Shown here: piece after piece, positions 14,610 to 54,838 of the stretch
How positions within the stretch are numbered: the first letter of the stretch is position 1
Layout of the letters: each line of letters begins with the position of its first letter
Assembly (NCBI GenBank): GCA_014360755.1
Contig: JACIWX010000003.1
Span: 283,678 to 347,677, forward strand
Direction: 5' to 3'
Origin: Chloroflexota bacterium
GTDB taxonomy: Bacteria > Chloroflexota > Anaerolineae > UBA2200
DNA length: 64,000 bases
Made by a program: the position numbers and the translations under genes
The notes under the pieces: model-generated
What the model was told of the DNA's origin: nothing
The model's input: only the letters and a program-made list of their open reading frames with translations
The model's database searches: none

Positions 14610-14695
14610 GGCAAACTGGCCCAACTAGGGTGCACGCTGTAGTGGAAATTGTGGAATTTTACGCTGCAGACTGACCATTTGTCGAGGAGGACAAC

Positions 14696-18900: not shown

Positions 18901-20700
18901 TTAGACGTTCTTCTTTTCCTCGACCGCCTTCAGCGCCATAGCGATGAATTCCTCTAACGGTTTGGGACCCAGGTTCTCCTCGCTGCGCAGGCGCACGGAC
19001 ACTGTCCCGTCCTGAACCTCCTTATCACCCACGATCAGCATATACGGGATTTTCTGCAATTGCGCCTTGCGCACTTTGGCGTTCATGCGTTCCTCGCTGT
19101 CGTCTACCTCAGCGCGGAGCCCGGCTTCCTTCAGGCGCTGGAGCACCTGGCGTGCATATTCGTTGTGGCGGTCAGCGATGGGGATGATTTCTACCTGGAC
19201 AGGCGATAGCCACACCGGAAAAGCGCCGGCATAGTGCTCAATCAGACCGCCCACGAAGCGCTCCATGCTGCCCAACACAGTGCGATGCACCATTACCGGA
19301 CGGTGCTCCTTGCCATCCACACCGACAAACGTGAGGTCGAAACGCTCTGGGAAATTGAAATCCACTTGGATGGTGGGACCTTGCCAGCCGCGCCCCAACG
19401 CATCGCGCATTTTGATGTCAATGGCTGGGCCGTAGAACTTGGCTTCTCCTGGCATGACCTTGTACTCGATTTGGCGCTGCTTAAGTGCTTCTTCCAGTGC
19501 GGATTCAGCCGTCTCCCACACAGCATCTTCCCCGATGTACTTCGCCTTGTTCGCAGGGTCGCGCACGGACAGTTCCACGTCGAATTGCTCGTAGCCAAAC
19601 GTGCGCAGCATGAAGAAGGCGAGGTCCAGCACCCCAACGATTTCGTCCATGAGCTGGTCGGGGCGACAGAAGATATGGGCATCGTCTTGCGTGAAGCCGC
19701 GCACGCGCAACATGCCATGCAGCACGCCGCTCCGCTCGTAGCGGTAGACTGTACCTAATTCTGCCCAACGCAGCGGGAGATCGCGATAAGAGCGCGTCCG
19801 CGTCTTGTACATCAGCACGGCGAAGGGGCAGTTCATCGGCTTGAGCAAGTATTCTACCCCATCAATGTTAATCGGTGAGTACATCATGTCGCGGTAAAAA
19901 TCCCAATGGCCGCTGATCTTCCACAGGTCCAGCCTGCCAATATGTGGACTGTAGACGATATCGTAGCCGCGCTTGCGGTGCTCCTGCCGCCAGAAGTTTT
20001 CGATGATCTCGCGGATGAGCGCCCCTTTGGGATGCCAATAGACCAGCCCGGCGCCGCCGATTTCATGCGTGCTGAACAAGTCCAGTTCGCGCCCCAGCTT
20101 GCGGTGGTCACGTCGCTCGATTTCGGCTAACTTGTGTAAGTATGCTTCGAGTTGCTCGCGGGTAGGCCATACCGTCCCATAGATCCGTTGCAGCATGGGA
20201 CGGTGCTCATCACCACGCCAGTAGGCGCCCGCCACATTGAGCAGCTTCAAACCCTCTGGGTTGATCTCGCGCGTATTGGACACATGGGGACCACGACAGA
20301 GGTCAACGAATGAGCCATGTTTGTAGATGCTCAGTTTGGGCGGCCCTTCTGCGGCCTCGCCGTATTCGTCCTTGCCGCCAGCCAGGATGTCCTGAATCAG
20401 CTCCAGTTTATAGGGCTGGTCGGCAAAGATCTCCCGTGCCTCTGCTTCGGAGACCTCGCGGTACTCAAAGGGGTGATCCTCTTGCACAATCTGCTTCATA
20501 CGCGCCTCGATCTCCTGCAAATCCTCGGGAGTCAAAGGGCGAGGCAAATCAAAATCGTAATAGAACCCCTCTTCGATTGCCGGCCCAATGGCCAGTTTGC
20601 CCTCAGGGAACTTTTCTAGCACCGCCTGGGCCATGACATGGGCGGCAGAGTGCCTTAACTTGTGCAAGAATTCCTCGTTTTGATCGTGTTCTTTAGACAT
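18901..20700 (-). CDS. thrS: threonyl-tRNA synthetase
   Basis: Class II aaRS and ThrRS motifs (HRDLKP..., GGAGLVYWHPKG). The true start is ATG at 20700-20698 (MSKEHDQNEEF...). The 60 upstream codons of the ORF-track call lie inside the T-box leader. Confidence 0.9.
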   Translation of the reverse strand: MSKEHDQNEEFLHKLRHSAAHVMAQAVLEKFPEGKLAIGPAIEEGFYYDFDLPRPLTPEDLQEIEARMKQIVQEDHPFEYREVSEAEAREIFADQPYKLELIQDILAGGKDEYGEAAEGPPKLSIYKHGSFVDLCRGPHVSNTREINPEGLKLLNVAGAYWRGDEHRPMLQRIYGTVWPTREQLEAYLHKLAEIERRDHRKLGRELDLFSTHEIGGAGLVYWHPKGALIREIIENFWRQEHRKRGYDIVYSPHIGRLDLWKISGHWDFYRDMMYSPINIDGVEYLLKPMNCPFAVLMYKTRTRSYRDLPLRWAELGTVYRYERSGVLHGMLRVRGFTQDDAHIFCRPDQLMDEIVGVLDLAFFMLRTFGYEQFDVELSVRDPANKAKYIGEDAVWETAESALEEALKQRQIEYKVMPGEAKFYGPAIDIKMRDALGRGWQGPTIQVDFNFPERFDLTFVGVDGKEHRPVMVHRTVLGSMERFVGGLIEHYAGAFPVWLSPVQVEIIPIADRHNEYARQVLQRLKEAGLRAEVDDSEERMNAKVRKAQLQKIPYMLIVGDKEVQDGTVSVRLRSEENLGPKPLEEFIAMALKAVEEKKNV

Positions 20701-21035
20701 ATTTCTTCTCCTTATCATACCAGCAATCAGTGGGTAGCGCGCCTTAACAAAAAACCCTCTCACCCAAGGGGCGAGAGGGGACTCACGCGGTTCCACCCAA
20801 TTTCGACAACCAGGTTTGGTTGTCCTCCTTATGGCCGATAACGGGTGCCTCCGGGGCTCCATACTCTGCTCAGCCTGCATTTCCGGAGCCGGCTCTCAGG
20901 TGGTTTTCGCTGGGCTCCCGTTGAGAAGGCTCGCAGTCTATGACCTTCCCTCCCTGGAACGGCTCCTCCAGCTACTCGTCCTGATCACAGCCGATAAACA
21001 AAACCCACGGACGTACCGTGGGCTTCGTCGCCTTT
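20701..21035 (-). promoter_or_regulatory. T-box riboswitch leader of thrS (specifier ACC, Thr)
   Basis: On the minus strand: stem-I GAGTAG element; specifier loop GCGAAAACCACC (GAA-ACC-A, Thr codon); T-box sequence AAATTGGGTGGAACCGCG at 20805-20788; intrinsic terminator CCCTCTCGCCC-CTT-GGGTGAGAGGG followed by TTTTTTGTT at about 20783-20746. Confidence 0.75.
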
Positions 21036-21746: not shown

Positions 21747-21763
21747 GAAAAGCGCGCCGGCGT

Positions 21764-21844
21764 GGGGAAGTGTCGGAATGGTAGACGAGCGTGACTTAGG
21801 ATCACGTGGAGCAATCCGTGAGAGTTCGAGTCTCTCCTTCCCCA
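21764..21844 (+). tRNA. tRNA-Leu (anticodon TAG), class II with long variable arm
   Basis: Manual fold: acceptor GGGGAAG/CTTCCCC, D-arm TCG-GAATGGTAGA-CGA, anticodon stem CGTGA/TCACG with loop CTTAGGA, variable stem GGA/TCC, T-arm GAGAG-TTCGAGT-CTCTC, discriminator A. CCA is not encoded. Confidence 0.9.
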
Positions 21845-21861
21845 TCAGGTTAGGTGAAAAA

Positions 21862-21933
21862 GCGGAAGTGGCTCAGCGGTAGAGCATCTCCTTGCCAAGG
21901 AGAGGGCCGCGGGTTCGAATCCCGTCTTCCGCT
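21862..21933 (+). tRNA. tRNA-Gly (anticodon GCC)
   Basis: Acceptor GCGGAAG/CTTCCGC, D-arm GCTC-AGCGGTAG-AGC, anticodon stem TCTCC/GGAGA with loop TTGCCAA, T-arm GCGGG-TTCGAAT-CCCGT, discriminator T. Confidence 0.9.
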
Positions 21934-22020
21934 CCTTATGGAGAATGCTGGTTCGCATGAACCAGCATTCTCTGTATGCCTCAGGCAGGGAACTCTCCTA
22001 CCTGAGTTGATTCATCATAA

Positions 22021-28058: not shown

Positions 28059-29567
28059 ATGCAAATCATTGAGCTTCAAGGCGACGAGAATATTGCAGTC
28101 ATTCGAAACCTCCTGGAGCAAGCCACTGATCAGGAGGTGGTGCTCTTTGTGCCCAGGGGATGTGAGGCACTAGAGAGGAACGAAGTCAACCTCAGGGTAT
28201 TGCGCCGCTGGGCGGACAATCTTGCCTTGCACGTTGCCCTGGTCATCGAGGACAGGGGTACGCATGTTATGGCCCGGCAAGCAGGATTTGTTTTGTTACC
28301 CTCTATTGCCAAAGCCCAGCAAACCAATCTGCGCCTTTTGGAACGCCGCAAGCGCCGTTTCGAAGGGTTGCCACCACGTCCGAGTCCTGCTGTACCGCTT
28401 GCCCCGCCAAGACAGACGCCGAGCAGGGCTGCCCGGAGACCCACCTCCCGCGTCTTCGTTGGCATCCTGGTCAGTTTGCTCGCCTTCCTGACCCTTACGC
28501 TGACCGTGCTGGTCATCTTGCCCAGCGCTACGATCACCCTTACGCCGGTCAGTGAGCCTGTAGAAGCCTCTATGGAAATCGTCGGCGTAGCTGGCTTGAC
28601 GGACATCAATTACGGCCTGGCTGAAGTACCAGCGCGCTTAGTTTCTGTTGAACGCGAGGGCAGTGATAAGATTGCCACCACAGATCGGCGGGACGTCCCG
28701 GATGCACACGCACAAGGAACGGTAATCTTTGCCAATAAAACGACCATTCCAGTAACGATCACTAAGGGTACGGTGGTGCGCACCAGCACTGGCGACAATG
28801 TGCGCTTCTATACTGTGGCTGATGCCTGGTTGCCTGGTGAACTGTTCGCCACGGTGCGTGTGGGTATCCTGGCAGCAGAGCCAGGCCCAAAAGGCAATGT
28901 GCCTGCCCTGAGCATCAATGTAATAGAAGGCGAACTGGCTGCACAAGCTGATGTGTTGAATGATGCGCGCACCAGCGGTGGCACAGTGCGCCGAATGCCC
29001 ATCGTAGCTAGCGAAGATGAGGTGAACCTGCGTGCTAAATTGATGAAACGCCTGCAGGAAGAAGCCTACCGCGAATTGACGGCTGCCCTAAGCAAGAGTG
29101 AGTTCATTCCCCCGGATTCCCTGAGCATTGCAATCATAAACGAGAAGTTTGATCACAAAGTGGGGGACATGGCAGATGAGCTGGGCATGAGCATGAAAGT
29201 AAGGGTAACCGGCTTGGCAGTTGACACTGCCAATGGAGAGAAACTGTTGCTACGGCTGCTAGAGCAACGCATGAAACCAGGCTATCGCTTGCTTGAGGAG
29301 AGTGCTTCCTTTCAGCAGGATGGTTTGATTGAGGCCTCATCCAACAAAGCGCGTTTTCGCATGAGCGCACGGGCCAGAATCGCGCCTGCTATTGACGCTA
29401 GTGAGGTCAGGCATGCCGTTGCCGGCAAGACGATTGAAGCAGCCAGAGAACACCTGATGCGACAATTCAAACTCAGCACTGCTCCGCAGATTCAATTGCA
29501 GAACAGCTTGCTCCAGCGTTTGCCATGGTGGACCGCTCGCATTCATGTGCGGGTTAGCACAAGGTGA
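28059..29567 (+). CDS. hypothetical membrane-anchored protein (single TM near residue 145; possible baseplate-J-like beta-rich domain, low confidence)
   Basis: 502-aa ORF with a clean frame, an Arg/Pro-rich linker, then the hydrophobic segment VFVGILVSLLAFLTLTLTVLVIL. It sits in the conserved alaS-X-ruvX-mltG neighbourhood. Confidence 0.5.
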   Translation: MQIIELQGDENIAVIRNLLEQATDQEVVLFVPRGCEALERNEVNLRVLRRWADNLALHVALVIEDRGTHVMARQAGFVLLPSIAKAQQTNLRLLERRKRRFEGLPPRPSPAVPLAPPRQTPSRAARRPTSRVFVGILVSLLAFLTLTLTVLVILPSATITLTPVSEPVEASMEIVGVAGLTDINYGLAEVPARLVSVEREGSDKIATTDRRDVPDAHAQGTVIFANKTTIPVTITKGTVVRTSTGDNVRFYTVADAWLPGELFATVRVGILAAEPGPKGNVPALSINVIEGELAAQADVLNDARTSGGTVRRMPIVASEDEVNLRAKLMKRLQEEAYRELTAALSKSEFIPPDSLSIAIINEKFDHKVGDMADELGMSMKVRVTGLAVDTANGEKLLLRLLEQRMKPGYRLLEESASFQQDGLIEASSNKARFRMSARARIAPAIDASEVRHAVAGKTIEAAREHLMRQFKLSTAPQIQLQNSLLQRLPWWTARIHVRVSTR

Positions 29568-31190: not shown

Positions 31191-31217
31191 TTCGGCTATT
31201 TGTGCTTTTTTGCACTA

Positions 31218-31248
31218 TTTGCCAAAGCTGGCAAAGCTGTGTACAATG
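31218..31248 (+). promoter_or_regulatory. putative promoter with operator-like inverted repeat upstream of the metF-associated operon
   Basis: Inverted repeat TTTGCCA-AAGCT-TGGCAAA at 31218-31235 overlaps a -35-like TTGCCA. -10 TACAAT lies at 31243-31248 with an 18-bp spacer. Confidence 0.35.
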
Positions 31249-31316
31249 TCGCCGACTGCGTTGTTCCAGAAGCAGCCGGATTAAACATCGCCCCAAAATA
31301 GAAAGGATAGCCGAGT

Positions 31317-33410
31317 ATGAGCAACCTAAGCGACCGATCTACATTGCCTGCGGAACCGCTTCCTCCATGTCAGGTTGCCTGTCCAGCACACACCGATGTC
31401 CGGGGCTATATCCACGCCATCGCGCGCGGAGATTTTGAAGAAGCCTACCGTATAGCGCGCGAACCCAATCCCTTGCCTTACATCTGCGGCAAGGTTTGTG
31501 CTCATCCCTGTGAGACCGAATGCCGACGCGGTGACGTTGATGAGCCCGTCGCCATCTGTGCGCTGAAGCGTTTCGCGACAGAGCAACACGACCTGAGCAA
31601 AGGCCATGCGCCAGGGCTAACCGTCGCAGAGCCAAAGGAGGAAAAAGTAGCGATCGTCGGCTCAGGCCCCGGCGGCCTGACCGCTGCCCATGACCTGGCA
31701 CGCATGGGTTATAAAGTTACCGTCTTCGAAGCTTACCCCAAAGTTGGCGGCATGATGCAATATGGCATTCCTCTCTATCGCTTGCCGCGTGAGACCATTG
31801 ACCTTGAAACGGCCCCCCTGAAGGATCTAGGCGTCGAGTTCGTCACTAATCAGCGGGTTACCGATGTAGACGCCTTGCTCGCAGATGGCTACAAAGCAGT
31901 ATTCCTGGCCGTTGGTTCTCATGTGGGACGCAAGCTACGCATTCCCAATGCAGACCTGCCTGATGTCTGGTTGAACACGGAATTCCTGCGGCGGGTGGCT
32001 TTGGGAGAGAAGATTGACCTGAGAGGACGCCACGTGCTGGTGCTGGGAGGAGGCAACGTAGCCATAGATGTGGCACGCACAGCATTGCGCCTGGGTGCAG
32101 CCGAGGTTTCCATGACTTGTTTGGAGAGCTGCACCACACAGCCAGCACATCCTTGGGAAATCAAGGAGGCTGTGGAAGAGGGCGTGCAGATGTTCCATGA
32201 CCGCACATTCAAAGAAATTGTCGCTGAGAATGGCAAAGTCAAGGGCGTGCGCTGCGTCAAGGTGAACTTCCGTGGCTTCTTGCCAACTGGTGCGCCGGAC
32301 ATGGATGAATTCCCCGAAACAGAGCATGTCCTCCCGGCAGATTTGGTCATTTTTGCGATTGGCCAGGGCCCTGACCTCAGTTTCCTGCCCCAAGATGGCT
32401 CTATTGCTCAGACACCACGGCGCACAATCCAAGTCAATCCTGTTACCTTGGCTACTACCAAACCAGGCGTCTTTGCCGGTGGGGATGCCGTCACTGGTGT
32501 GGGATTTATTATTGATGCTATTGCAGCAGGGCATCGCGCTGCTCGCTCCATAGACGCTTACCTGCGAGGTCTTGATCCGGCTTCTGTGCAGCCTCCTGAG
32601 CCGCAGAAGCTCAATGATCTGCAACAAAAGACCATCTCCCACATCCGCCACCTGAAGCGCGAAGAGATGCCCATGTTGGATGTCAACCAACGCAAGTTCA
32701 CCTTTGACGAAGTATACCTAGGCTATACGGAGGCACAGGCTATCCGCGCCGCGCATCGCTGCCTTACTTGTGGCGCGGGTGCGCGAGTAGAGGAAACCAA
32801 GTGCATTGCTTGCCTCACCTGCGTGCGGGTCTGCCCTTATGAAGTGCCATTACTGGCGCGTGGCACTGCAAATGTGCCTGTAGATCAGTGTCAAGCCTGT
32901 GGCATTTGCGCGACCGAGTGCCCGGCGAAAGCGATCTCGATGAAACTCTATTCCGATGAGGACATGATCAAACAGATTCGCGATGCGGTGCGCAAGGCCA
33001 AGTACAATGGCGAACCGGCCATTGTAGGCTTTGCCTGTCGCTATTGTGCCTATGCTGGCGAGGATGCGAACGTAGTCAAAGCAAGCCTGCCGGCGAATGT
33101 GCAAACCATTGACGTGCTGTGCACGGGGAAGGTAGATGCTCTGTACCTGCTGAAGGCCTTCGAATTTGGTGCCGATGGCGTATTTGTGGCAGGTTGTCTG
33201 GAAGGCGAGTGTCACAATGACAAGGGCAATGTCCACGCTGCAAAACGCGTGGCTTACGTAAAAGGATTGCTGGATGAACTCGCTCTGGGCAATGCACGGC
33301 TGGAAATGTTCCACATGTCCCCTGACCAATGCGCCAACATGGCCGAGGTCGTCAGCACACTGATTACAAAGGTCAAAGAATTGGGACCTAGTCCGGTGAG
33401 GAGAAGCTAA
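31317..33410 (+). CDS. fusion oxidoreductase: GltD/NfnB-like FAD-NAD(P) domain + 2x[4Fe-4S] ferredoxin + MvhD-like domain
   Basis: N-terminal Cys cluster (CQVACPAHTD...CGKVCAHPCETEC) and dinucleotide fold GSGPGGLTAAHDLARMGYKVTVFE. Two CxxCxxCxxxCP motifs (CIACLTCVRVCP, CQACGICATECP). The C-terminus (VGFACRYCAYAGED...LCTGKVD...) matches the methyl-viologen-reducing hydrogenase delta-subunit family. Confidence 0.7.
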   Translation: MSNLSDRSTLPAEPLPPCQVACPAHTDVRGYIHAIARGDFEEAYRIAREPNPLPYICGKVCAHPCETECRRGDVDEPVAICALKRFATEQHDLSKGHAPGLTVAEPKEEKVAIVGSGPGGLTAAHDLARMGYKVTVFEAYPKVGGMMQYGIPLYRLPRETIDLETAPLKDLGVEFVTNQRVTDVDALLADGYKAVFLAVGSHVGRKLRIPNADLPDVWLNTEFLRRVALGEKIDLRGRHVLVLGGGNVAIDVARTALRLGAAEVSMTCLESCTTQPAHPWEIKEAVEEGVQMFHDRTFKEIVAENGKVKGVRCVKVNFRGFLPTGAPDMDEFPETEHVLPADLVIFAIGQGPDLSFLPQDGSIAQTPRRTIQVNPVTLATTKPGVFAGGDAVTGVGFIIDAIAAGHRAARSIDAYLRGLDPASVQPPEPQKLNDLQQKTISHIRHLKREEMPMLDVNQRKFTFDEVYLGYTEAQAIRAAHRCLTCGAGARVEETKCIACLTCVRVCPYEVPLLARGTANVPVDQCQACGICATECPAKAISMKLYSDEDMIKQIRDAVRKAKYNGEPAIVGFACRYCAYAGEDANVVKASLPANVQTIDVLCTGKVDALYLLKAFEFGADGVFVAGCLEGECHNDKGNVHAAKRVAYVKGLLDELALGNARLEMFHMSPDQCANMAEVVSTLITKVKELGPSPVRRS

Positions 33411-33411
33411 C

Positions 33412-34080
33412 ATGATCAAAGCACAACAAAAACCCATCGCCGAGATCAAGGCATTGATCGCTCCATACCACAGAATCCTGATCCTTGGCTGTGGTACATG
33501 TGTTACCATCAGTTTTGCCGGTGGCGAGAAAGAGGTTGGATTGCTGGCTTCCAGCCTGCGCATTGCTTCGGCTATGGAGGGACAGGATAAAATATTCGCT
33601 GAAGCAACTGTGCAGCGCCAGTGTGAATGGGAGTTCATTGATGCTGTTGCGGAACAGATTCAGCAAGCAGATGCCGTTCTCTCTCTCGCTTGTGGCATTG
33701 GGGTGCAAGCCCTAGCCGAGCGCTATCCCGATAAGGTTGTCCTGCCTGGTGTGAATACCACCTTCCTAGGCATGGCGGTGGAGCACGGCGTCCTGGTAGA
33801 GCGTTGCCGTGCCTGCGGTGATTGCATCCTGGGCTTGACTGGTGGCGTGTGTCCTATTGCGCGCTGTGCCAAAAACCTGCTCAATGGCCCCTGTGGTGGC
33901 TCGCAGAATGGCAAATGCGAGGTTAATCCGGAGCTTGACTGTGCCTGGCAGCTCATCTATGACCGCTTAGCCAGATTGGGACAACTAGACCGCTTGGCCG
34001 CCCTGATGCCATACAAGGATTGGTCTAAGGACTATGACGGCGGCCCACGTAAGATTGTAAGGGAGGATCTGAGGCTATGA
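33412..34080 (+). CDS. metV: MetV-like methylene-tetrahydrofolate reductase small/C-terminal-domain subunit
   Basis: 222 aa. Cys-rich (GCGTC...CRACGDC...CPIARC) zinc-ribbon-containing protein immediately upstream of, and overlapping, metF, as in acetogen metV-metF pairs. Confidence 0.65.
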   Translation: MIKAQQKPIAEIKALIAPYHRILILGCGTCVTISFAGGEKEVGLLASSLRIASAMEGQDKIFAEATVQRQCEWEFIDAVAEQIQQADAVLSLACGIGVQALAERYPDKVVLPGVNTTFLGMAVEHGVLVERCRACGDCILGLTGGVCPIARCAKNLLNGPCGGSQNGKCEVNPELDCAWQLIYDRLARLGQLDRLAALMPYKDWSKDYDGGPRKIVREDLRL

Positions 34081-35000
34081 AAGTCGGCAGTAATCTCGAA
34101 AAAGTGCTCACCAGCGGCTACTTTGCCGCTACTGGGGAATTGGGCCCTCCCAAAAGCGCTGACCCAGGAGTGATCCGCCATAAAGCGAGCCTGCTCAAGG
34201 GGTACGTGGACGCGGTCAACATCACCGATAACCAGACAGCCATTGTCCGTATGTCGAGCATCTCTGTGGGCATCATGCTATTGCAATTGGGGCTAGAGCC
34301 CACGATTCAAATGACGTGTCGTGACCGCAATCGCTTGGCGATTCAATCCGACCTGCTGGGGGCAGCTGCCCATGGCGTGAAGAACCTGCTCTGTCTGACA
34401 GGCGACCACCAACGCTTTGGCAACCATCCCACAGCCCGTGGGGTATACGACCTGGATTCCATCCAGCTGATCCAGATGGTCAAAACGATGCGCGATGAGA
34501 AAAAGTTCGCTTGCGGCGAAGAAATGGATGTCGAGCCACGTTTCTTTATCGGGGCAGCGGAAAACCCCTTTGCAGACCCATTTGATTACCGGCCTTATCG
34601 CTTGGCGAAGAAGATTGCGGCAGGAGCGGACTTTATACAGACTCAGCTTATTTACAATGTACCCAAGTTCAAAGAGTTCATGAAGCGGGTTTGTGATCTA
34701 GGTTTGCACGAAAAGTGTTACATCCTGGCTGGGGTTGGTCCCATTAAAAGCGTCGGTATGGCTCGTTATATGCAGACCAGCGTCCCTGGTATGGACGTGC
34801 CTGAAGAAATTGTGGCACGGTTGAAGGGGGTGCCAAAGGATCAAGTGCGCAAAGAGGGCATCAAGCAGTGCGCGGACATTATCTCTGAAATACGGGAGAT
34901 CCCAGGCGTCGCCGGCGTACACGTTATGGCCATCGAATGGGAAGAGGCCGTGCCCGAAATCCTGGAACTGGCAGGACTGCTGCCACGGCCAAAGGTATAA
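34077..35000 (+). CDS. metF: 5,10-methylenetetrahydrofolate reductase
   Basis: MTHFR TIM-barrel motifs (VNITDNQTAIVRMSS, LCLTGDH). 307 aa. Confidence 0.85.
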   Translation: MKVGSNLEKVLTSGYFAATGELGPPKSADPGVIRHKASLLKGYVDAVNITDNQTAIVRMSSISVGIMLLQLGLEPTIQMTCRDRNRLAIQSDLLGAAAHGVKNLLCLTGDHQRFGNHPTARGVYDLDSIQLIQMVKTMRDEKKFACGEEMDVEPRFFIGAAENPFADPFDYRPYRLAKKIAAGADFIQTQLIYNVPKFKEFMKRVCDLGLHEKCYILAGVGPIKSVGMARYMQTSVPGMDVPEEIVARLKGVPKDQVRKEGIKQCADIISEIREIPGVAGVHVMAIEWEEAVPEILELAGLLPRPKV

Positions 35001-35048: not shown

Positions 35049-35639
35049 TTATGGACCTTTGGCTCTGCGAAGCTGGGCCACGTATATGCGACGAATCTCA
35101 GTAAAGATTTCGATATAGCGCGGGCTGGCATAGTCCGGATAAGTCCATTCCCAGGGATGGAAAGCACCGTGTCTATATTGTAGGGTTACTTCGGCATAAA
35201 TGCCCTGCCCCAAATAGATGCGATGAGAATAGTCTTTGGTGGTAGCCAACACGAGCTTGCCCAGTGAGACGTAGCCTGGATCCAAATTGACACGGCGCCG
35301 TCCCTCTACAGCCCAGGTCATTTCCAGGTCGTTGGTGATGCGTTTGATCTCGGCCAATCGGTCTGGCGGAACCAATTCCATGAAGGCAACAATTTGCCGC
35401 ACCAATCCTTCGCCGAACTCGCGGGCATAATAGGAGGTGCGGTTAAAAGGCAACAACTCGCTTTGGTAGTCAATGGGTCCAAAGCGGTTGGCTAATGCCC
35501 CTCTGGCCACTGCCAATAGGGTTTCATCTGCAGTAAAAATGCTGGCAATCAACTTGACGGGGGGCGGTTCATTGATCTTGCCCATCTCCAACCCTTCCTC
35601 TGTCCGAGTATTATAGCGGAAAAGCGAGTGGGTCCACAA
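35049..35639 (-). CDS. hypothetical protein (conserved, unknown function)
   Basis: 196-aa ORF with good RBS context. No catalytic motif recognised. Confidence 0.45.
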   Translation of the reverse strand: MWTHSLFRYNTRTEEGLEMGKINEPPPVKLIASIFTADETLLAVARGALANRFGPIDYQSELLPFNRTSYYAREFGEGLVRQIVAFMELVPPDRLAEIKRITNDLEMTWAVEGRRRVNLDPGYVSLGKLVLATTKDYSHRIYLGQGIYAEVTLQYRHGAFHPWEWTYPDYASPRYIEIFTEIRRIYVAQLRRAKGP

Positions 35640-40997: not shown

Positions 40998-41621
40998 ATG
41001 CTCAGCGAGAAATCTGTGCGTATCTTTCTGGATGAACTCGCCAGTTCAGCACCGGCTCCCGGTGGTGGCAGTGCCGCCGCTTTGGCTGCTGCTATTGGCG
41101 CCGCACTGGTGAGCATGGTCGCAAACCTGACTGTGGGCAAGAAGGATTATACCCATGTCCAGGATGACATCCAGCGTATTCTGAAGCGTTCAGAAGAACT
41201 ACGCCACAAATGCCTGGAATTGCTGGAAGGAGATGTCGCTGCTTACACTGAGGTATCTCTCGCCTATAAGATGCCCCGTGACACCGAGGAGCAGAAAGCA
41301 GCGCGTAGTGCCGCTATCCAAAAGGCACTGAAAACCGCTACCGCCGTTCCGATGGAACTTGCCGAGGCTTGCGTAGAAATCTTGAATTTGTGCCCGGAAA
41401 GCGCAGAAAAGGGCAACGTGCGTGCCGTCAGCGACGTAGGTGTGGGAGCGCTGATGGCCGAGGCAGCCTTGCGCGCTGCGGCACTGAATGTGTTGATTAA
41501 CCTGGGCAGTATCAAAGACGAGTCCTTTGTGCAGCAAACCCGTGCACGGCTGAACGCGCTTTTGGAGGGCAAAGCCGAATTGAAGGAGAAAATCCTCAAG
41601 GATGTGGAAGCCAAGTTATAA
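40998..41621 (+). CDS. fchA: methenyltetrahydrofolate cyclohydrolase (cyclodeaminase/cyclohydrolase FTCD-C family, FchA-like)
   Basis: FLDELASSAPAPGGGSAAALAAAIGAALVSMVANLT...DVAAY is a formiminotransferase-cyclodeaminase C-domain fold. It sits directly upstream of folD and fhs. Confidence 0.7.
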   Translation: MLSEKSVRIFLDELASSAPAPGGGSAAALAAAIGAALVSMVANLTVGKKDYTHVQDDIQRILKRSEELRHKCLELLEGDVAAYTEVSLAYKMPRDTEEQKAARSAAIQKALKTATAVPMELAEACVEILNLCPESAEKGNVRAVSDVGVGALMAEAALRAAALNVLINLGSIKDESFVQQTRARLNALLEGKAELKEKILKDVEAKL

Positions 41622-41713
41622 GCCACCGGTGAACGTGGTGGCTTGTGCCTTTGTCATTGCCCCGAGTACTTGTACCTAGAAACGGAATTCCGAGATTGAG
41701 AAAGGAGAGCAAG

Positions 41714-42601
41714 ATGACGGCAACGATTCTGAATGGTCGCGAATTAGCCAAGACAATGCAGGAAGAGATCAGCGCTGAGGTTGCAGCGTTCAAAGCCCGC
41801 TACAATGTGGTGCCGACCATCGCGGTAGTGCGGGCGGGCGAGGACCCCGCTTCGGTCAGTTATGGCAAAGCCATCGAAAAAGCGTTTACTGGCCGTGGAA
41901 TGGGATTCGCCTTGCATACCTTGCCGGAAACAGCAACACAGGATGAGATTGTGGCGCTGGTCGCTAGATTGAACGCAGATCCGGATGTCCATGGCATCAT
42001 GGTGCAAGAGCCGCTGCCTAAGGGCGTCAACGAAGCAGCGGTGAAGGAAATCCTTTCTCCTGATAAGGATGTAGATGGCGTGCATCCCGTGAATGCTGGC
42101 CGATTGGCTCAGGTCGCTCCAGTAGGACGCCCACCTATGGTCGAACCTTTCTTCGTCCCCGCTACTCCAGCTGGCGGGCTGGAGATACTGAAGCGGTATA
42201 ACGTCTCCTTGCAGGGGAAACACGCTGTGGTAGTGGGCCGCTCCAACATCGTCGGCAAGCCGATGGCGATGCTCCTCTTGCGCGAGAATGCAACGGTAAC
42301 CATTTGCCACTCACAGACAACCGATTTGGCTGCTGTGTGCCGCAGTGGTGACATCCTCTGTGCCGCTGTGGGAAGGGCAAAAATGATCAAGGGTGATTGG
42401 ATCAAGCCTGGCGCTGTAGTCATTGACTTTGGCGTTAACTTTGTGGATGGCCAGATGTGTGGTGATGTAGATTTTGAAGCAGCGCAAGAGGTAGCAGGGA
42501 TGATCACCCCCGTACCGGGCGGTACGGGCCCGATGACCAACATCATGCTGATGCGCAATGTTCTGGAAGCTGCCCAAAGGCAGTTGAAGGAGAAGGCCTG
42601 A
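41714..42601 (+). CDS. folD: bifunctional 5,10-methylene-THF dehydrogenase / 5,10-methenyl-THF cyclohydrolase
   Basis: FolD motifs (ILNGRELA, KDVDG, GAGRSNIVGKPMAMLL). ATG at 41714 after GGAGAGCAAG. The ORF-track start at 41645 is probably too far upstream. Confidence 0.9.
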   Translation: MTATILNGRELAKTMQEEISAEVAAFKARYNVVPTIAVVRAGEDPASVSYGKAIEKAFTGRGMGFALHTLPETATQDEIVALVARLNADPDVHGIMVQEPLPKGVNEAAVKEILSPDKDVDGVHPVNAGRLAQVAPVGRPPMVEPFFVPATPAGGLEILKRYNVSLQGKHAVVVGRSNIVGKPMAMLLLRENATVTICHSQTTDLAAVCRSGDILCAAVGRAKMIKGDWIKPGAVVIDFGVNFVDGQMCGDVDFEAAQEVAGMITPVPGGTGPMTNIMLMRNVLEAAQRQLKEKA

Positions 42602-42692
42602 TAGCCCTGTTTGACAATGTCAGCAAGCTGTGGTAAGATTTGCGGCAGCTGCGGTAGTGAAAGATTTCACAATTAGGCACAGTGCAGGGAAT

Positions 42693-42846
42693 GAGAGTGT
42701 TGAAAAAGCCTTTCCAATGTCATGCTGAACGGAGTGAAGCATCTCGCAGTACTTGGGGAAAGAGGCTAAAGTTACGCGAGACCTCTTCGTTGCACTTAGG
42801 GCAGGCTCTTCGCTTCGCTCAAGGTGACAAGATTTTCCACACTCTC
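42693..42846 (+). mobile_element. MITE-like element, copy 3 (shortest), inserted between folD and fhs
   Basis: TIRs GAGAGTGTTGAAAA ... TTTTCCACACTCTC. Perfect 8-bp target-site duplication CAGGGAAT at 42685-42692 and 42846-42853 (C42846 is ambiguous between TIR and TSD). Confidence 0.7.
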
Positions 42847-43030
42847 AGGGAATTCGAGGCATTCAGTGTAATAGGATGCCAGTATTGTAACCCACGCGGG
42901 CGGTTTAGAGGGGTAGTTCCCCTTTGGGTGTTCTTGCCAATCTGAGTTCCGATCAAGCGCAGTTCCTTTATTTCACAATGCGTTTGATTTGTATATTCAA
43001 ATACATGATTGCACAAAGGAGGCAACAAAT

Positions 43031-44899
43031 ATGATCGTTGAAGTCAAGTCCCCAGTACCGAGCGATATTGAAATTGCTCAGGCAGCTAAGCTGCGACCTA
43101 TCCGCGAGGTGGCCGAAGAGTTGGGCCTCTCAGAAGATGACCTTGACCTCTATGGCAAGTACAAAGCCAAGGTCCATCTAGACGTGCTAGAGCGCCTGAA
43201 GGACCGCCCCAACGCCAAGTACATTGATGTAACCGCCATTACCCCCACCCCGCTTGGCGAAGGGAAAACGGTAACCACCATCAGCCTCAGCCAAGGCCTG
43301 CACTATATCGGCAAGAAAGTCTTCACCTGCATCCGGCAACCCTCACAAGGTCCCACCTTCGGCATCAAGGGAGGTGCGGCCGGCGGTGGTTATGCCCAAA
43401 TCGTCCCAATGGAAGACTTTAACTTGCATCTCACCGGCGATATCCATGCCGTAGGTGCAGCCAACAACTTGCTTGCTGCTGCCATTGATGCCCGCATCAT
43501 GCACGAGGACGAGATGAGCGATGAGAGGCTGCTCAAAGCCCTCTGCCCAGATGACAAGTTCGCCCCGTGGATGTATAAGCGGCTCCAGAAGCTGGGCATC
43601 CAGGCGGAAAAACCATCCGACCTGAGTCCAGAGGACCGGCGGCGCTTCGCCCGTCTGGACATTGACCCCTACAGCATTACTCTAAACCGCGTCATTGACA
43701 TCAATGACCGCGCGATCCGCAATGTGGTTATTGGCTTGGGCACCAAAGGCGACGGACGGCCTCGCCAGACCGGCTTTGATATCACGGTCGCAAGCGAAGT
43801 GATGGCCATCCTGGCTTTGGCTACCAGCCTAAAGGACTTGCGTGAACGCATCGGGCGTATGGTCATCGGCACGGACAAGAACCGTAATCCGATCACAGCT
43901 GAGGACTTGGGCGTGGCTGGCGCCATGACGGTTCTACTCAAGGATGCGCTGATGCCTAACCTGATGCAGACCTTGGCAGGTACCCCCGCTTTCGTGCACG
44001 CCGGGCCATTTGCCAACATTGCCCACGGCAATAACTCGATCATCGCGGACATGATTGGGCTGAAACTAGTCTCAGGCGGCTACTTGGTCACAGAATCCGG
44101 ATTCGGTGCGGACTGTGGCATGGAGAAATTCTTCGACATCAAGTGCCGCTACAGCGGGCTGATACCCAACTGCGTGGTGATGGTCGCCTCCATCCGTGCT
44201 CTGAAGATGCACGGCGGTGGTCCGAGAGTGGTTGCAGGCGTGCCCCTGAACCCAGCATATAAACAAGAGAACCTCGAGTTGCTAGAAAAGGGCCTTTGCA
44301 ACCTAGAAGCCAATATCAAGATCGCCCTCAAATTCGGCATCCCTGTCGTAGTAAGCATTAACAAGTTCACTACAGATACGGACAGAGAGATCGCCCTCGT
44401 AAAAGAGGCGGCCATAGCTGCTGGCGCAGAAACGGCTGTGGTCAATGAGGGTTGGGCGAAAGGCGAGGCGGGTGCTGCTGAATTGGCTGAAGCTGTGGTG
44501 GCCGCCTGCGAAAAACCCAGCAACTTCCGATTCCTTTACCCGCTGGATATCCCAATCAAGGACAAGATCGAGATCATCGCCAAAGAAATCTATGGTGCTG
44601 ATGGCGTCATCTTTGAAGCGGCAGCCCAGCAAAAAATCAAACTCTATACCGAACTCGGGTACGACAAACTGCCCATTAATATGGCTAAGACGCACCTATC
44701 ACTGTCTCACAACCCAGATTGGAAAGGTGTGCCCAAGGGCTATATGCTGCCCGTGCGCGATATCCGGGCCTCGGTCGGCGCAGGATTCCTATATCCGCTC
44801 TGCGGAGCCATGCGCACCATGCCCGGACTGCCATCTCGCCCAGTGTTCATGGACATTGACATTGACGTAGAGACTGGCAAAGTCATCGGACTTTCATAA
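43031..44899 (+). CDS. fhs: formate--tetrahydrofolate ligase
   Basis: [24 protein letters not shown]-loop and 623-aa length. ATG at 43031 after AAAGGAGG. Confidence 0.9.
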
Positions 44900-44911
44900 G
44901 CCTTTGGGAAG

Positions 44912-44946
44912 AGAGGTGGAGGAGTAATGCTCCTCCACCTCTTTGG
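44912..44946 (+). terminator. putative intrinsic terminator after fhs
   Basis: 13-bp perfect stem AGAGGTGGAGGAG / CTCCTCCACCTCT with loop TAATG, followed by a short U tract (TTTGG). Confidence 0.45.
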
Positions 44947-44964
44947 CAGCCCTTGGGAGCATTC

Positions 44965-44992
44965 TTCAAAACGCACTTATCTGCTGTATAAT
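44965..44992 (+). promoter_or_regulatory. putative sigma70 promoter of the acs (CODH/ACS) operon
   Basis: TTCAAA (44965-44970), 16-bp spacer, perfect TATAAT (44987-44992), about 70 nt upstream of the first gene's GTG. Confidence 0.45.
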
Positions 44993-45002
44993 TCATCTAA
45001 TA

Positions 45003-45017
45003 GGATAATTTTTATCC
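45003..45017 (+). promoter_or_regulatory. perfect palindrome GGATAA-TTT-TTATCC at +4..+19 of the acs promoter (candidate operator)
   Basis: 15-bp perfect palindrome immediately downstream of the predicted -10. Confidence 0.3.
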
Positions 45018-45064
45018 ACATGCGGTTCTGCAGCGACCGCACAGCAAACTGAAGGAGGGGAAAA

Positions 45065-45403
45065 GTGCCAGTGGGAAAAGTAGTTTTCGATGTGCCGAAA
45101 ATGTACGCCGATCACCACGTTGAGGCAGTGCGCAAGGCTCTGCTAGCATTGCCGGGCATTGAGGAGATTATAGCCAGCAGCGCCCTAAAGCGCGTGGTGG
45201 TTCGTTACGATACAGAGCGCCTCAACCCAGGCGCAATCGAACAAGCCTTGCAGGCTGCAGGGTATGCGCCAGGAGAGGAGTGGGAACTACCCAAGTTACC
45301 GGAAGGCAAAGAAGACCATTCTCCATGGTTCCAGGTCATCCCAAGGGTAACGACAACGGATAGGCGCGATCTGGAGATGTCCGGAGATTTCCGAAAATAT
45401 TAA
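45065..45403 (+). CDS. HMA-fold (ferredoxin-like beta-alpha-beta-beta-alpha-beta) small protein lacking CxxC; candidate metallochaperone of the acs operon
   Basis: GTG start 5 nt after GAAGGAGGGG. VVFDVPKMYADHHVEAVRKALLALPGIEEI...VVVRYDTERLNPGAIEQALQAAGYAP matches heavy-metal-associated domain topology with M-T-C-x-x-C replaced by M-Y-A-D-H-H. It is the first gene of the operon, directly upstream of cooS. Confidence 0.5.
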   Translation: MPVGKVVFDVPKMYADHHVEAVRKALLALPGIEEIIASSALKRVVVRYDTERLNPGAIEQALQAAGYAPGEEWELPKLPEGKEDHSPWFQVIPRVTTTDRRDLEMSGDFRKY

Positions 45404-45446
45404 ATTTTGCAGTTGCTTGAGATTTCATGAGAAGGAGCAAGATCCG

Positions 45447-47414
45447 ATGACAGACCAAAAATCTATAGACCCAGCGGTGTGCGATTTGCTGGAGATATGT
45501 GAATCCGAAGGCATTTCCACCGCTTTTGACCGCGCAGAGCAGATGAAACCATGCCCGATTGGTAGCAAAGGGGCTTGTTGCAAGAACTGCGCCATGGGTC
45601 CCTGCCGTCTCACCAAAGAGGGCCAAGTAGGCATTTGCGGAGCTACCATTGACACCGTCGCAGCGCGCAACTTTGCACGCATGGTTGCGGCTGGTTCGGC
45701 TGCCCATTCCGACCACGGTCGGGACATGGCGTTGACTCTTTTGGCAGCGGCTACAGGGCATGCTCCAGATTACAAGATACGCGATGTGCGCAAACTCTAT
45801 GAGGTTGCCTCATTCCTGGACGTGAAAACAGATGGCCGCCCAGTCAATGATATCGCTAAGGAGGTGGCTGAGAAGGCGCTGATTGAATTTGGCCGCCAGC
45901 AAGGGAATATCATCTACCTCCAACGCGCACCGCGTAAGCGTCAGCAAATTTGGCAAAACCTGGGCATTGCCCCACGCGGGATTGACCGCGAAGTGGTGGA
46001 TATCATGCACCGCACCCATGCTGGAAACGATCAGGATTATAAGAGTTTGCTGATGTCCTCGCTGCGCACTGCCCTGGCTGACGGCTGGGGTGGTTCGATG
46101 CTTTCCACCGACATTACGGACATCCTCTTTGGCTCTCCTGTGCCGCTTGCGGCCAGGGCGAACATGGGCAACCTTAGCGAAGACCAGGTGAACATTGTCG
46201 TCCATGGCCATGAGCCAACCCTGTCCGAAATGATCCTAGTGGCGGTCAATGACCCGGAGATGATCGAATATGCTAAATCCAAGGGCGCCAAAGGCATCAA
46301 CCTAACCGGCATTTGTTGTACCGCCAACGAAACGTTGATGCGTCAGGGCGTGCCCACTATTGGCAATTTCCTCAGCCAGGAACTGGCAATTGCCACCGGT
46401 GCGATAGACCTGATGGTGGTGGATATCCAGTGCATCATGCAAGCCTTGGCTCCTCTGACCAAGCAGTTCCATACCCTCTTGGTGACCACTTCTGCAAAGG
46501 CGCACATTGACGGTGTTACTCATATCGAATTCGACGAGCACCGCGCTCTGGAAATTGCCAAGAATATCGTCAAAATGGGCATTGACAATTTCGTCAACCG
46601 CGGGGATGTGCATATTCCCAAAGATATTGACCAAATGGTCGTTGGTTTCTCACACGAGTATATCAACTACGCCTTGGGCGGTTTTTACCGTGGTTCCTTC
46701 CGTCCCTTGAATGATGCCGTCATCCAGGGGCGGCTGCGCGGCGTTGCGGGGGTGGTGGGGTGCAATAATGCGCGCACTTGCCAGGATGCAGCCCATACGT
46801 ATATTGTGCGCGAACTGATCAAGAACGATGTGCTAGTCGTGATGACTGGGTGCGGAGCAATCGCTTGCGCCAAATATGGCTTCCTGTCTCCGGAGGCAGC
46901 GCAGTACGCCGGACCAGGCTTGCGCGAGATCTGCGAGGCGGTGGGCATCCCGCCGGTGCTGCATATGGGCAGTTGCGTGGATAACACGCGTATCCTCACT
47001 GTGCTCAGCCAAATGGCCACCGAAGGCGGCTTGGGCGAAGACATTGCTGACATCCCAGGCGTTGGCTTTGCCCCGGAATGGATGAGTGAAAAAGCTATTT
47101 CCATTGGTTGTTACTTTGTCGGTTCTGGCGTATACACCATCTTTGGCAGCGAATCGCCTGTAGCCAACAGCCCCGCTGTGGTGCGCTTTATGAGCGAGGG
47201 TTGGGAAGAACACGTGGGCGGCAAGTTGGAATTTATCCCTGATCCAGAGGAAGCCGTCCGCAAAGCCTTGGAGCACATTGATAAGAAACGCGCTGCTCTA
47301 GGGTTAGTAGAGTACGACCCCACACGTTATGGTCAGAGCGGCGATGCGCTTATGCTCAAGCTGCTAGAGAAGGTAGAAGAGGGGACGCTCAACCTATACA
47401 GCGCCAAGTTATAG
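45447..47414 (+). CDS. cooS: carbon monoxide dehydrogenase catalytic subunit (Ni,Fe-CODH; AcsA/CooS)
   Basis: N-terminal B- and D-cluster Cys (CPIGSKGACCKNCAMGPCR) and C-cluster ligands (HGHEP..., CTGC...). 655 aa. ATG at 45447 after GAGAAGGAG. Confidence 0.9.
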   Translation: MTDQKSIDPAVCDLLEICESEGISTAFDRAEQMKPCPIGSKGACCKNCAMGPCRLTKEGQVGICGATIDTVAARNFARMVAAGSAAHSDHGRDMALTLLAAATGHAPDYKIRDVRKLYEVASFLDVKTDGRPVNDIAKEVAEKALIEFGRQQGNIIYLQRAPRKRQQIWQNLGIAPRGIDREVVDIMHRTHAGNDQDYKSLLMSSLRTALADGWGGSMLSTDITDILFGSPVPLAARANMGNLSEDQVNIVVHGHEPTLSEMILVAVNDPEMIEYAKSKGAKGINLTGICCTANETLMRQGVPTIGNFLSQELAIATGAIDLMVVDIQCIMQALAPLTKQFHTLLVTTSAKAHIDGVTHIEFDEHRALEIAKNIVKMGIDNFVNRGDVHIPKDIDQMVVGFSHEYINYALGGFYRGSFRPLNDAVIQGRLRGVAGVVGCNNARTCQDAAHTYIVRELIKNDVLVVMTGCGAIACAKYGFLSPEAAQYAGPGLREICEAVGIPPVLHMGSCVDNTRILTVLSQMATEGGLGEDIADIPGVGFAPEWMSEKAISIGCYFVGSGVYTIFGSESPVANSPAVVRFMSEGWEEHVGGKLEFIPDPEEAVRKALEHIDKKRAALGLVEYDPTRYGQSGDALMLKLLEKVEEGTLNLYSAKL

Positions 47415-47498
47415 ATTCAATAACCCGCCAGCTTTCGATCTGATGATGTAGCCTGCTGGCGGAAACCACCCTAATCAACGGAGAGAAGGAGAGCATCT

Positions 47499-49781: not shown

Positions 49782-49911
49782 ATCAGAGTGGCAAGCTTGG
49801 CTCCCACACTGCACTTCATCTACGGAGTAAGAGGAGCCCAGGCAGCGTGAAAATCATATCGCCTAGACACGGTACACTGCTAAGTTTGAAAAATCTAAGG
49901 AGATGTAGAGA

Positions 49912-50298: not shown

Positions 50299-50347
50299 AA
50301 AACCGATAGAGAGATGGAGTGCAAATAGGCTCATGATGGAGGAGAAA

Positions 50348-50764: not shown

Positions 50765-50817
50765 CAAGGCGATCGAGAAGGGATTGCTCGAGGGTTTTGG
50801 ATGAAGGGAGCAGGGTT

Positions 50818-51243: not shown

Positions 51244-51308
51244 AAGGAGAGGCAGGATGCAGGATGATATCCTGCATCTTGTATCTTTGGGAAAGGAGAC
51301 ATTGCACA

Positions 51309-54834: not shown

Positions 54835-54838
54835 ACGC

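Follow-up and report, generated by a model that had tools for sequence, protein, structure and literature searches.

A three-gene locus that encodes a methylene-tetrahydrofolate (methylene-THF) reductase (MTHFR) in an undescribed layout is found in a 64,000-nt stretch from an uncultured member of the Anaerolineae (Chloroflexota; contig JACIWX010000003.1). This whole stretch is hereafter called the window, and all positions are counted within it. The first gene codes for a 697-aa protein in which a GltD/NfnB-like flavin module, a ferredoxin domain and an MvhD domain are fused, and it is followed by metV and metF. On balance, the product is probably a soluble, three-subunit, linear and non-bifurcating NADH (reduced nicotinamide adenine dinucleotide):methylene-THF oxidoreductase, with the fusion protein as its pyridine-nucleotide input module. 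The types of MTHFR reported in acetogens are MetF, MetVF, RnfC2-MetVF, and HdrABC-MvhD-MetVF (Öppinger et al.; Kremp et al., PMC9430772), and the arrangement in the window is none of these four. Full-text literature searches, a scope outside which most subscription journals lie, turned up no paper on a protein of the GltD-ferredoxin-MvhD kind next to metVF, and within that scope the arrangement is undescribed. Among genomes, however, it is widespread. The three genes are as follows:

31317..33410, + strand: fusion gene (697 aa), proposed electron-input subunit of the reductase (open reading frame list, Pfam, NCBIfam, homologues)
33412..34080, + strand: metV (222 aa), Fe-S/zinc subunit (PF12225, DUF5981/MTHFR_C, E 5e-39)
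34077..35000, + strand: metF (307 aa), flavin-containing catalytic subunit (PF02219, MTHFR, E 3e-39)

The open reading frames given in a preliminary description of this DNA were exact for all three genes, and its placing of MetV and MetF 3' of the fusion gene is confirmed by the two Pfam matches. It had also called the trio an overlapping unit, which holds for metV and metF, sharing the 4 nt ATGA at 34077-34080 (with AGGGAGGA upstream), but not for the fusion gene and metV, which lie 1 nt apart (TAA-C-ATG, with GGTGAGGAG upstream). This layout suggests translational coupling at both junctions. No intrinsic terminator was found when one was looked for 3' of metF on the + strand. MetV is 55% identical to the MetV of a Moorella-type cluster from Dehalococcoidia (locus L025, below), and a PDB sequence search with it gave no match to any solved structure; MetF is only distantly similar to the solved NAD(P)H-type MTHFRs.

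Regarding the fusion protein, a hidden Markov model scan confirmed the domain make-up already proposed for it, i.e., a GltD/NfnB-like flavoprotein, two [4Fe-4S] ferredoxin motifs, and a C-terminal MvhD-type domain. The Pfam matches are Fer4_20 (aa 16-91, E 1e-21, beginning at model position 30), Pyr_redox_2 (aa 110-405, E 2e-29), and FlpD/MvhD (PF02662; aa 569-690, model positions 1-123 of 123, E 9e-35), and two CxxCxxCxxxCP motifs lie at aa 489-542. Membership of the C-terminal domain in the MvhD family is borne out by the full-length FlpD match, in which all five cysteines are kept. The following segments of the gene can be distinguished:

31362..31589, + strand: N-terminal 2x[4Fe-4S] domain, aa 16-91, with C18, C22, C57, C61, C65, C69, and K84 (nt 31566-31568) (Fer4_20)
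31644..32570, + strand: Rossmann domains for flavin adenine dinucleotide (FAD) and NAD(P)H, aa 110-418, with GSGPGGLTAA (FAD) and GGGNVAIDVAR (nicotinamide cofactor) (Pfam, alignments)
32667..32777, + strand: permuted segment, aa 451-487, ...FDEVYLGYTEAQAIRAAHRCLTC, equivalent of NfnB N-terminal residues 6-42 (HMMER alignment)
32781..32951, + strand: 2x[4Fe-4S] ferredoxin domain, aa 489-545, with C496/499/502/506 and C525/528/531/535 (homologous to the HdrA C-terminal ferredoxin domain)
33012..33401, + strand: MvhD-type [2Fe-2S] domain, aa 566-695, with C574, C577, C602, C627, and C632 (Pfam FlpD, PDB MvhD chains)

In an alignment of 20 full-length homologues (40-93% identity), C18, C22, C61, C65, C69, K84, R155, the FAD motif GxGxxG, GGGNVAxDxAR, C482, C485, all eight cysteines of the ferredoxin domain, and C627 are invariant, while 90% or more of the homologues have C57, C574, C602, and C632. 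The proposed cluster ligands of the N-terminal domain are C18, C22, C61, C65, and C69; C57 aligns with NfnB C86, a residue absent from the NfnB ligand list (PMC7596348). The C-terminal 130 residues match the MvhD chains in the PDB with 90-108 bits (94 bits for 5odc_D), all cysteines being in register in the residue alignment to 7bkb_F, 9sfi_K, and 9sw2_D, and residues 493-559 match the HdrA C-terminal ferredoxin domain (8rvu_a residues 588-654).

The best solved relatives of the N-terminal 487 residues, in sequence and in fold, are 9bov_A (336 bits), 9n5u_A (315 bits), and 8oh5_C (315 bits), i.e., the NfnABC modules of Caldicellulosiruptor and Thermococcus and StnC of Sporomusa ovata StnABC, and lower scores are reached by NfnB (4ylf_B from T. 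maritima, 271 bits), NfnL (5jca, 218 bits), GltD, and dihydropyrimidine dehydrogenase. In HMMER, the match to NfnB falls into two pieces in swapped order, residues 14-418 corresponding to NfnB 43-461 and residues 451-485 to NfnB 6-42 (...FEEVALGYT...RCLQC), while the fusion is colinear with all three of the best relatives (aa 15-487 with 8oh5_C 101-568). Judging from these alignments, the flavin module is thus circularly permuted with respect to NfnB, and the permutation is common to the StnC/NfnABC class. This is supported by the start of the Fer4_20 match at model position 30, by the confidence of the AlphaFold2 (AF2) model in the permuted segment (predicted local distance difference test, pLDDT, of 82-90 for aa 451-480), and by a homologue from locus L010 that ends 8 aa after its RCLRC. 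C482 and C485 correspond to NfnB C39 and C42, ligands of the distal cluster in the residue list of PMC7596348. Overall, the AF2 model has a pLDDT of 78.8 and a predicted template modelling score of 0.68, the ferredoxin domain (aa 485-545) falling below a pLDDT of 50.

With StnC and the NfnABC modules, the fusion shares the permuted order, the RCLxC after the Rossmann domains, and the Lys ligand, at the 315-336 bits given above. In contrast, these modules carry the YRR motif for NADPH (reduced nicotinamide adenine dinucleotide phosphate), are fused to NuoG/formate-dehydrogenase-like domains, and have a HydBC-like bifurcating partner, while the window fusion has CLE instead and none of these additions. 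From NfnB and NfnL of NfnAB (4ylf, 5jca), which have the same fold, the FAD and nicotinamide sites, and two [4Fe-4S] clusters, the fusion differs in being permuted, in having its CxxC moved to aa 482-485, in a Lys for Glu117, and in lacking both YRR and an NfnA partner. No PyrK-like (NfnA partner), dsr, NuoG-like, or HydBC-like gene was found in the window scans.

Two sites in the flavin module bear on nucleotide use and mechanism. C268-L269-E270 (nt 32118-32126) occupies the place of NfnB Y310-R311-R312, which holds the 2'-phosphate of NADPH (PMC7596348) and is present in all five solved relatives aligned. In the DsrL family, YRR is present with NADP(H) activity and absent with NAD(H) activity, three enzymes having been measured (PMC7596348). 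With CLE in place of YRR, NADH is predicted over NADPH, so that the NAD(P)H linkage proposed earlier stands as regards the presence of a nucleotide input module and is narrowed to, probably, NADH. Most of the 120 closest homologues have CLE, and YRR is found in a Chloroflexota subclade of about 706 aa, which suggests that NADH-type and NADPH-type versions of one enzyme exist. P0112, the sole YRR member whose locus was traced, still adjoins metVF, which would fit a nucleotide-input role with switchable specificity. The other YRR members are P0077, P0080-82, P0096, P0100, P0102-104, P0106, P0109, P0110, P0116, P0117, P0119, and P0120; CLE is common to the window clade and the HdrL-like forms considered below. 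The second site, K84, aligns with K170 of StnC, and 9bov and 9n5u also have Lys there, while the bifurcating NfnB (Glu117) and NfnL have Glu. In StnC, K170 ligates the cluster beside an FAD described as non-bifurcating, from which electrons take the route FAD-C7-C6 and onward (PMC10482914). Together with the topology, K84 would argue against bifurcation.

The preliminary description had likened the locus to a condensed version of the Moorella complex, which is supported by piecewise homology to a Moorella-type cluster (locus L025; Dehalococcoidia metagenome-assembled genome PLME01000006, peat fen), where hdrC-hdrB(CCG)-hdrA-mvhD-metV occupy 3566-10632 and the 1492-aa HdrA carries a GltD insertion. 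By BLASTP, aa 17-506 of the fusion match this insertion, which has its own RCLNC (L025 HdrA 161-645, 40% identity, 317 bits), aa 489-545 match the HdrA C-terminal ferredoxin domain (1407-1464, 47% identity), and aa 564-697 match the free-standing MvhD (41% identity), while neither TrxR-like flavin domain of L025 HdrA has a counterpart in the fusion. As the GltD module, one ferredoxin domain, MvhD, and MetVF are kept and the TrxR-like flavin domains and HdrBC are gone, "condensed" is accurate. In M. thermoacetica, HdrA has 1487 aa, its TrxR-like domains carry the Glu/Lys that mark bifurcating flavins, and the GltD domain is the sole predicted NAD(P)H site of a protein that oxidises NADH (PMC9430772). 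In locus L025, metV is not directly followed by metF on its strand; the genes opposite are ubiE and ubiA, and a glutamate-synthase-like pair lies upstream.

Compared with the described reductases, the window locus thus shares MetV, MetF, MvhD, the GltD module and the HdrA C-terminal ferredoxin domain with type IV, HdrABC-MvhD-MetVF of Moorella thermoacetica and Sporomusa ovata (Mock 2014; Kremp 2022, PMC9430772), but lacks the TrxR-like HdrA flavin domains, HdrB, and HdrC, and has MvhD fused and three genes instead of six. The NCBIfam HdrA models match the fusion only at aa 486-692, far below their cut-offs. With type III, RnfC2-MetVF of Acetobacterium woodii (Bertsch 2015, as far as it is reported in PMC8760232), it has in common MetVF with one nucleotide-site subunit and a predicted linear, NADH-dependent function; in that account RnfC2 is of the FMN (flavin mononucleotide)/RnfC type, whereas the input subunit of the window is unrelated, being of the FAD/GltD type with a ferredoxin domain and MvhD. 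Unlike type II, which consists of MetVF only, it has a third gene 1 nt before metV, a linkage kept in 11 of the 12 loci tabulated. The best reading of these sequences is that the enzyme would be type III-like in function (as A. woodii RnfC2-MetVF) and, by descent, a type IV reductase minus both TrxR-like HdrA flavin domains and HdrBC.

Related architectures are found outside the MTHFRs. In DsrL, as described in PMC7596348, an NfnB-like core is followed by a linker and a C-terminal 2x[4Fe-4S] domain that feeds a partner enzyme directly, the nucleotide specificity of DsrL being set by the presence or absence of YRR (PMC7596348). Going by this description, the fusion resembles DsrL in architecture up to aa 545, and the NCBIfam model PRK12771 gives 487.6 against a cut-off of 516; unlike DsrL, the fusion has no dsr genes at its locus, and none were found in the related loci traced. 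The fusion of ferredoxin domain and MvhD recurs in HdrA2 of Methanosarcina (NCBIfam NF040770; aa 488-692 correspond to HdrA2 571-774 of 777) and at the C-terminus of HdrL from Desulfobacterium autotrophicum (PMC2702500). However, HdrA2 and HdrL have HdrA-type flavin domains and adjoin HdrD/HdrBC-type genes, and the window fusion has neither. HdrL-like homologues of about 1040 aa are 46-52% identical to the fusion over the part held in common, and both these and the forms of about 1500 aa sit beside hdr genes, unlike the form of about 700 aa. One such locus (L089 3120-12674, GCA_002366595) holds pyruvate:ferredoxin oxidoreductase genes, a fusion of about 1040 aa, an HdrD-like CCG protein, a small FAD protein, and an HdrA-MvhD protein, without metVF.

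The fusion architecture is common to nearly all of the 120 best 90%-clusters; among the best 150 representatives at 50% identity, about 40 match the fusion over its full length in a single stretch of 630-710 aa. The family is common in Anaerolineae and Dehalococcoidia metagenomes, where its members usually go by the annotations 'FAD-dependent oxidoreductase', 'hydrogenase iron-sulfur subunit', or 'formate dehydrogenase beta subunit'. The last of these names, given to several homologues by JGI, raised the suspicion that the beta subunit of the Moorella NADP-formate dehydrogenase has the same build, for which a literature search gave no paper; the idea plays no part in the present reading. Besides the window, 11 loci were tabulated, listed here by identity of the fusion protein:

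P0001, 93% identity: fusion, then MetV, MetF
P0007, 80% identity: fusion, then MetV, MetF
P0012, 79% identity: fusion, then MetV, MetF
P0023, 73% identity: fusion, then MetV, MetF
P0032, 54% identity: TusA and ThiF inserted, then MetV, MetF, fchA-folD-fhs-cooS
P0051, 45% identity: MetV, then a sensor kinase
P0062, 44% identity: MetV, MetF (Dehalococcoidia)
P0067, 42% identity: sensor kinase between metV and metF
P0112, 42% identity: MetV, MetF
P0089, 41% identity: cooS-acsB-acsC-[fusion-metV-metF]-cooC-acsE (locus L093)
P0079, 41% identity: no metVF nearby

With the window counted as one, MetV follows the fusion directly or after a two-gene insert in 11 of the 12 loci (about 40-93% identity), so that the genes of the proposed unit stay together in other strains as well. 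Close relatives keep the 1-nt gap and the 4-nt overlap, and the flanking genes differ even among them, the trio thus travelling as a unit. No hdr gene lies beside the trio in the 12 loci with the architecture of about 700 aa, nor was any CCG-domain, RnfC, hydrogenase, or formate dehydrogenase gene found beside it in the related loci. Regarding the insertions, the TusA and ThiF-like genes lie between fusion and metV in L082/L083 (L082 9929-11067), and a GAF-histidine kinase gene lies between metV and metF in loci that include L087 (8795-10045) and L094 (7815-9122). In L087, metF is followed by response regulator genes. For the marine single-cell genome DscP3, phoBR genes have been reported around metF_1 (PMC5736913), a setting of which the kinase insertion is reminiscent.

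In the linear oxidoreductase proposed here, the three proteins would form a complex in which the FAD of the GltD/NfnB-like module accepts a hydride from NADH, in preference to NADPH. From the FAD, electrons would travel one at a time to the proximal [4Fe-4S] cluster with its Lys84 ligand, to the distal [4Fe-4S] cluster, for which the permuted segment would provide C482 and C485, through the two [4Fe-4S] clusters of the ferredoxin domain, and to the [2Fe-2S] centre of the MvhD domain. From there they would move on through the Fe-S clusters in MetV to the MetF flavin, where methylene-THF would be reduced to methyl-THF, or the reverse, the proposed enzyme being reversible. As C496 follows C485 by just 11 residues, the ferredoxin domain would lie beside the distal cluster, extending a single wire as in StnC. 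The sequences show the identities of the domains, the conserved cofactor ligands, the gene linkage, and the piecewise homology to Moorella-type HdrA and MvhD, from which the formation of a complex, the preference for NADH, the sequence of clusters, and the lack of bifurcation are inferred.

Several points weigh against this proposal. The fusion family is known from sequence alone, and the Lys/Glu and topology markers rest on few solved enzymes. R155 is conserved and equivalent to NfnB R201, the Arg that contacts the flavin N5 in the bifurcating enzyme. The AF2 model is unreliable at aa 485-545 and holds no cofactor distances, the cluster order being deduced from adjacency in the sequence. HdrABC, Rnf, or another partner could be encoded outside the 64-kb window, and P0079 (41% identity) has no metVF nearby. 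Finally, about 23 kJ/mol is lost in a linear NADH enzyme, a waste for a life based on the Wood-Ljungdahl pathway.

The first alternative is bifurcation at the NfnB-like FAD, where NADH or NADPH would be oxidised and one electron sent downhill via MvhD, MetV, and MetF to methylene-THF, the other uphill via the N-terminal [4Fe-4S] pair to free ferredoxin, which would make it the long-postulated energy-saving reductase with just three subunits. Electron delivery had been called possibly bifurcating in the preliminary description, and this possibility is weakened by the loss of the TrxR-like flavin domains and HdrBC and by the permuted topology and Lys84 ligand of the non-bifurcating StnC/NfnABC type. 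Energetics would permit it (NADH -320 mV, methylene-THF -200 mV, ferredoxin about -450 mV; PMC9430772, PMC8760232), the flavin module is a clear homologue of NfnB (271 bits with the T. maritima protein, Foldseek TM 0.79), R155 (NfnB R201, StnC R239) is invariant, and two separable Fe-S arms and a [2Fe-2S] centre are present, as in NfnAB. However, K84 replaces the Glu of NfnB in a module with the topology of StnC/NfnABC, whose FAD is described as non-bifurcating, the 11-residue spacing of C485 and C496 ties the ferredoxin domain to the distal cluster and makes one wire likelier than two, and what has gone with respect to the Moorella type is precisely the flavin domains that are candidates for bifurcation. 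Bifurcation is therefore held to be unlikely, and its specific form, a minimal soluble NADH-driven reductase whose ferredoxin-MvhD-MetV arm would supply methylene-THF and whose N-terminal cluster pair would supply ferredoxin, quite doubtful. If true, the latter would be the ferredoxin-generating methylene-THF reductase that has been postulated for acetogen bioenergetics and never demonstrated.

A different layout is seen in locus L010 (102-5575; Deltaproteobacteria metagenome-assembled genome JAIPDZ010000284), where a NuoE-like gene precedes a 1065-aa fusion of a NuoF/HydB-like protein with the same permuted GltD-like module, directly followed by MetV and MetF. The GltD-like module has the motif FCLES and ends just after RCLRC. 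By its sequence, this looks like a Bfu/Stn-type bifurcating module on MetVF, another undescribed layout and a better candidate for bifurcation than the window enzyme.

The next alternative, a split Moorella-type complex, has the MvhD domain dock the fusion on an HdrABC encoded elsewhere, so that the HdrA flavins and HdrBC would still be part of the working enzyme, which could be bifurcating or membrane-attached in the way proposed for Sporomusa ovata. In methanogen complexes, MvhD serves naturally as the adaptor to HdrA (matches to PDB 5odc and 7bkb), S. ovata MvhD pulls down HdrA, HdrB, and MetF (PMC9430772), hdrABC is often not co-localised with metFV-mvhD (Poudel et al., PMC6085437), and the present genome was seen over 64 kb only. 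Nevertheless, the fusion has its own copy, in cis and directly before the MvhD domain, of the HdrA element contacted by MvhD, namely the C-terminal ferredoxin domain, and it is the longer HdrL-like and HdrA::GltD forms that adjoin hdr genes, in contrast to the 12 loci of the shorter type, which makes a split complex rather improbable. Least probable of all, and very unlikely, is a fusion acting as an independent oxidoreductase of NAD(P)H with ferredoxin or another acceptor, merely co-transcribed and feeding a type II MetVF by free ferredoxin: type II MetVF enzymes do accept reduced ferredoxin in vitro (PMC8760232) and DsrL-like and PRK12771-like proteins with the same core do occur outside a metVF context, but the junctions appear translationally coupled, the gene order is kept across 40-93% identity, the MvhD domain is an electron adaptor between proteins and not a ferredoxin-reducing end, and NADH is unable to reduce ferredoxin without coupling.

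Upstream of the fusion gene, the following elements can be recognised:

31202..31215, + strand: inverted repeat GTGC-N6-GCAC just 5' of the -35 hexamer, which may be a site for a regulator or UP-like, kept in L090 and L081
31218..31235, + strand: perfect palindrome TTTGCCA-AAGC-TGGCAAA with 7-nt arms and a 4-nt spacer, unique in the window
31219..31247, + strand: sigma-70-type promoter-like site, -35 TTGCCA, 17-nt spacer, -10 TACAAT, 10 of 12 matches
31301..31307, + strand: Shine-Dalgarno sequence GAAAGGA at a distance of 9 nt from the ATG, unchanged across the five upstream regions aligned

The palindrome had been described as operator-like and overlapping the promoter; the repeat is perfect and the overlap holds, but its spacer is N4 and not N5. 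By a rough estimate, 0.1 perfect 7+7 inverted repeats are expected in a 126-nt spacer (with repeat spacers of 0-10 nt), and the palindrome by itself is not beyond chance. In an alignment of the window with four relatives, the block 31203-31247 is 91%, 84%, 69%, and 51% identical to the window, compared with 45%, 37%, 29%, and 27% for the adjacent leader/5' untranslated region. With the promoter block far more conserved than the leader, it appears to be under constraint in at least three relatives. The GCAC half of the upstream repeat is invariant. The left arm of the palindrome coincides with the -35 hexamer and is conserved in four of the five sequences; the right arm sits in the promoter spacer and can still pair at 5-6 of 7 positions in three relatives, whereas in L092, where the promoter block has largely diverged, it can no longer be recognised. 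The promoter may plausibly be overlapped by the binding site of a repressor or activator. An Rfam scan of the leader gave no riboswitch or other known RNA at E <= 1. An imperfect 21-nt inverted repeat (31192-31212 / 31294-31314, 76% complementary, with a perfect 8-bp core TCGGCTAT / ATAGCCGA) brackets the promoter and the ribosome-binding site. It was rejected as a device masking the ribosome-binding site, as its left arm lies 5' of the predicted promoter and the repeat shows little conservation in L090, and it would matter solely for read-through transcripts from mltG.

As for the wider neighbourhood, the housekeeping genes tig, clpP, clpX, alaS, ruvX, and mltG lie 5' of the trio. On its 3' side, six unrelated genes are followed, 6 kb downstream, by a near-complete Wood-Ljungdahl set on the + strand (40998-59247):

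40998-41621, + strand: fchA
41645-42601, + strand: folD
42989-44899, + strand: fhs
45417-47414, + strand: cooS/acsA
47499-49781, + strand: acsB
51237-52277, + strand: acsD
52356-53702, + strand: acsC
55351-57414, + strand: RACo
57479-58243, + strand: cooC
58327-59247, + strand: acsE

A CBS protein is encoded between acsB and acsD, and a hydrolase and a PAP2 protein between acsC and RACo. The bearing on acetogens suggested earlier is weakened, the host being an uncultured Anaerolineae bacterium with Wood-Ljungdahl genes and not a known acetogen. Its AlaRS has only metagenome-assembled genomes of this group among its named relatives. General protein-family scans of about 52 window proteins found no HdrB/C (CCG, Fer4_8-type), RnfC/Complex1_51K, hydrogenase, or formate dehydrogenase within the 64 kb, and RnfC/Complex1_51K is likewise missing from the family matches of the fusion itself.

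Convergent with metF, a DUF4416 gene lies on the - strand (35049-35639). It begins a block (DUF4416, ATP-grasp, GNAT, RNase H-like, radical SAM, acylphosphatase, unknown, fchA) that is syntenic in L090, L091, and L092, with unrelated genes between the DUF4416 block and metF in L091 and L092. At 13446-16528, an iron-type alcohol dehydrogenase gene is followed by one for aldehyde:ferredoxin oxidoreductase, a pair that fits a fermentative, ferredoxin-using anaerobe by which ethanol and acetate could be made or consumed. A T-box leader (102 bits; 20764-20997, - strand) lies upstream of the threonyl-tRNA synthetase gene and overlaps the 5' end of the listed open reading frame 18901-20880, whose real start codon is thus probably further downstream. 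After the T-box region come tRNA-Leu(TAG) and tRNA-Gly(GCC), listed at 21763-21935. Between alaS and ruvX, a 502-aa open reading frame (28059-29567) shows only weak similarity to Baseplate_J (E 7e-7) and is predicted to contain a hydrophobic stretch.

The locus represents a natural deletion variant, a minimal form of the Moorella-type reductase whose mechanism has long been debated, and for this reason the finding is useful rather than astonishing. The trio is small (three genes, 3.7 kb) and easily expressed, and setting it against the six-subunit form would reveal directly what is gained with the Hdr parts. While metV has been stated to be confined to one marine clade of Chloroflexi (Sewell et al., 2017; PMC5736913), the fusion-metV-metF loci would correct this statement, and with it the metabolic reconstructions of subsurface Chloroflexota.

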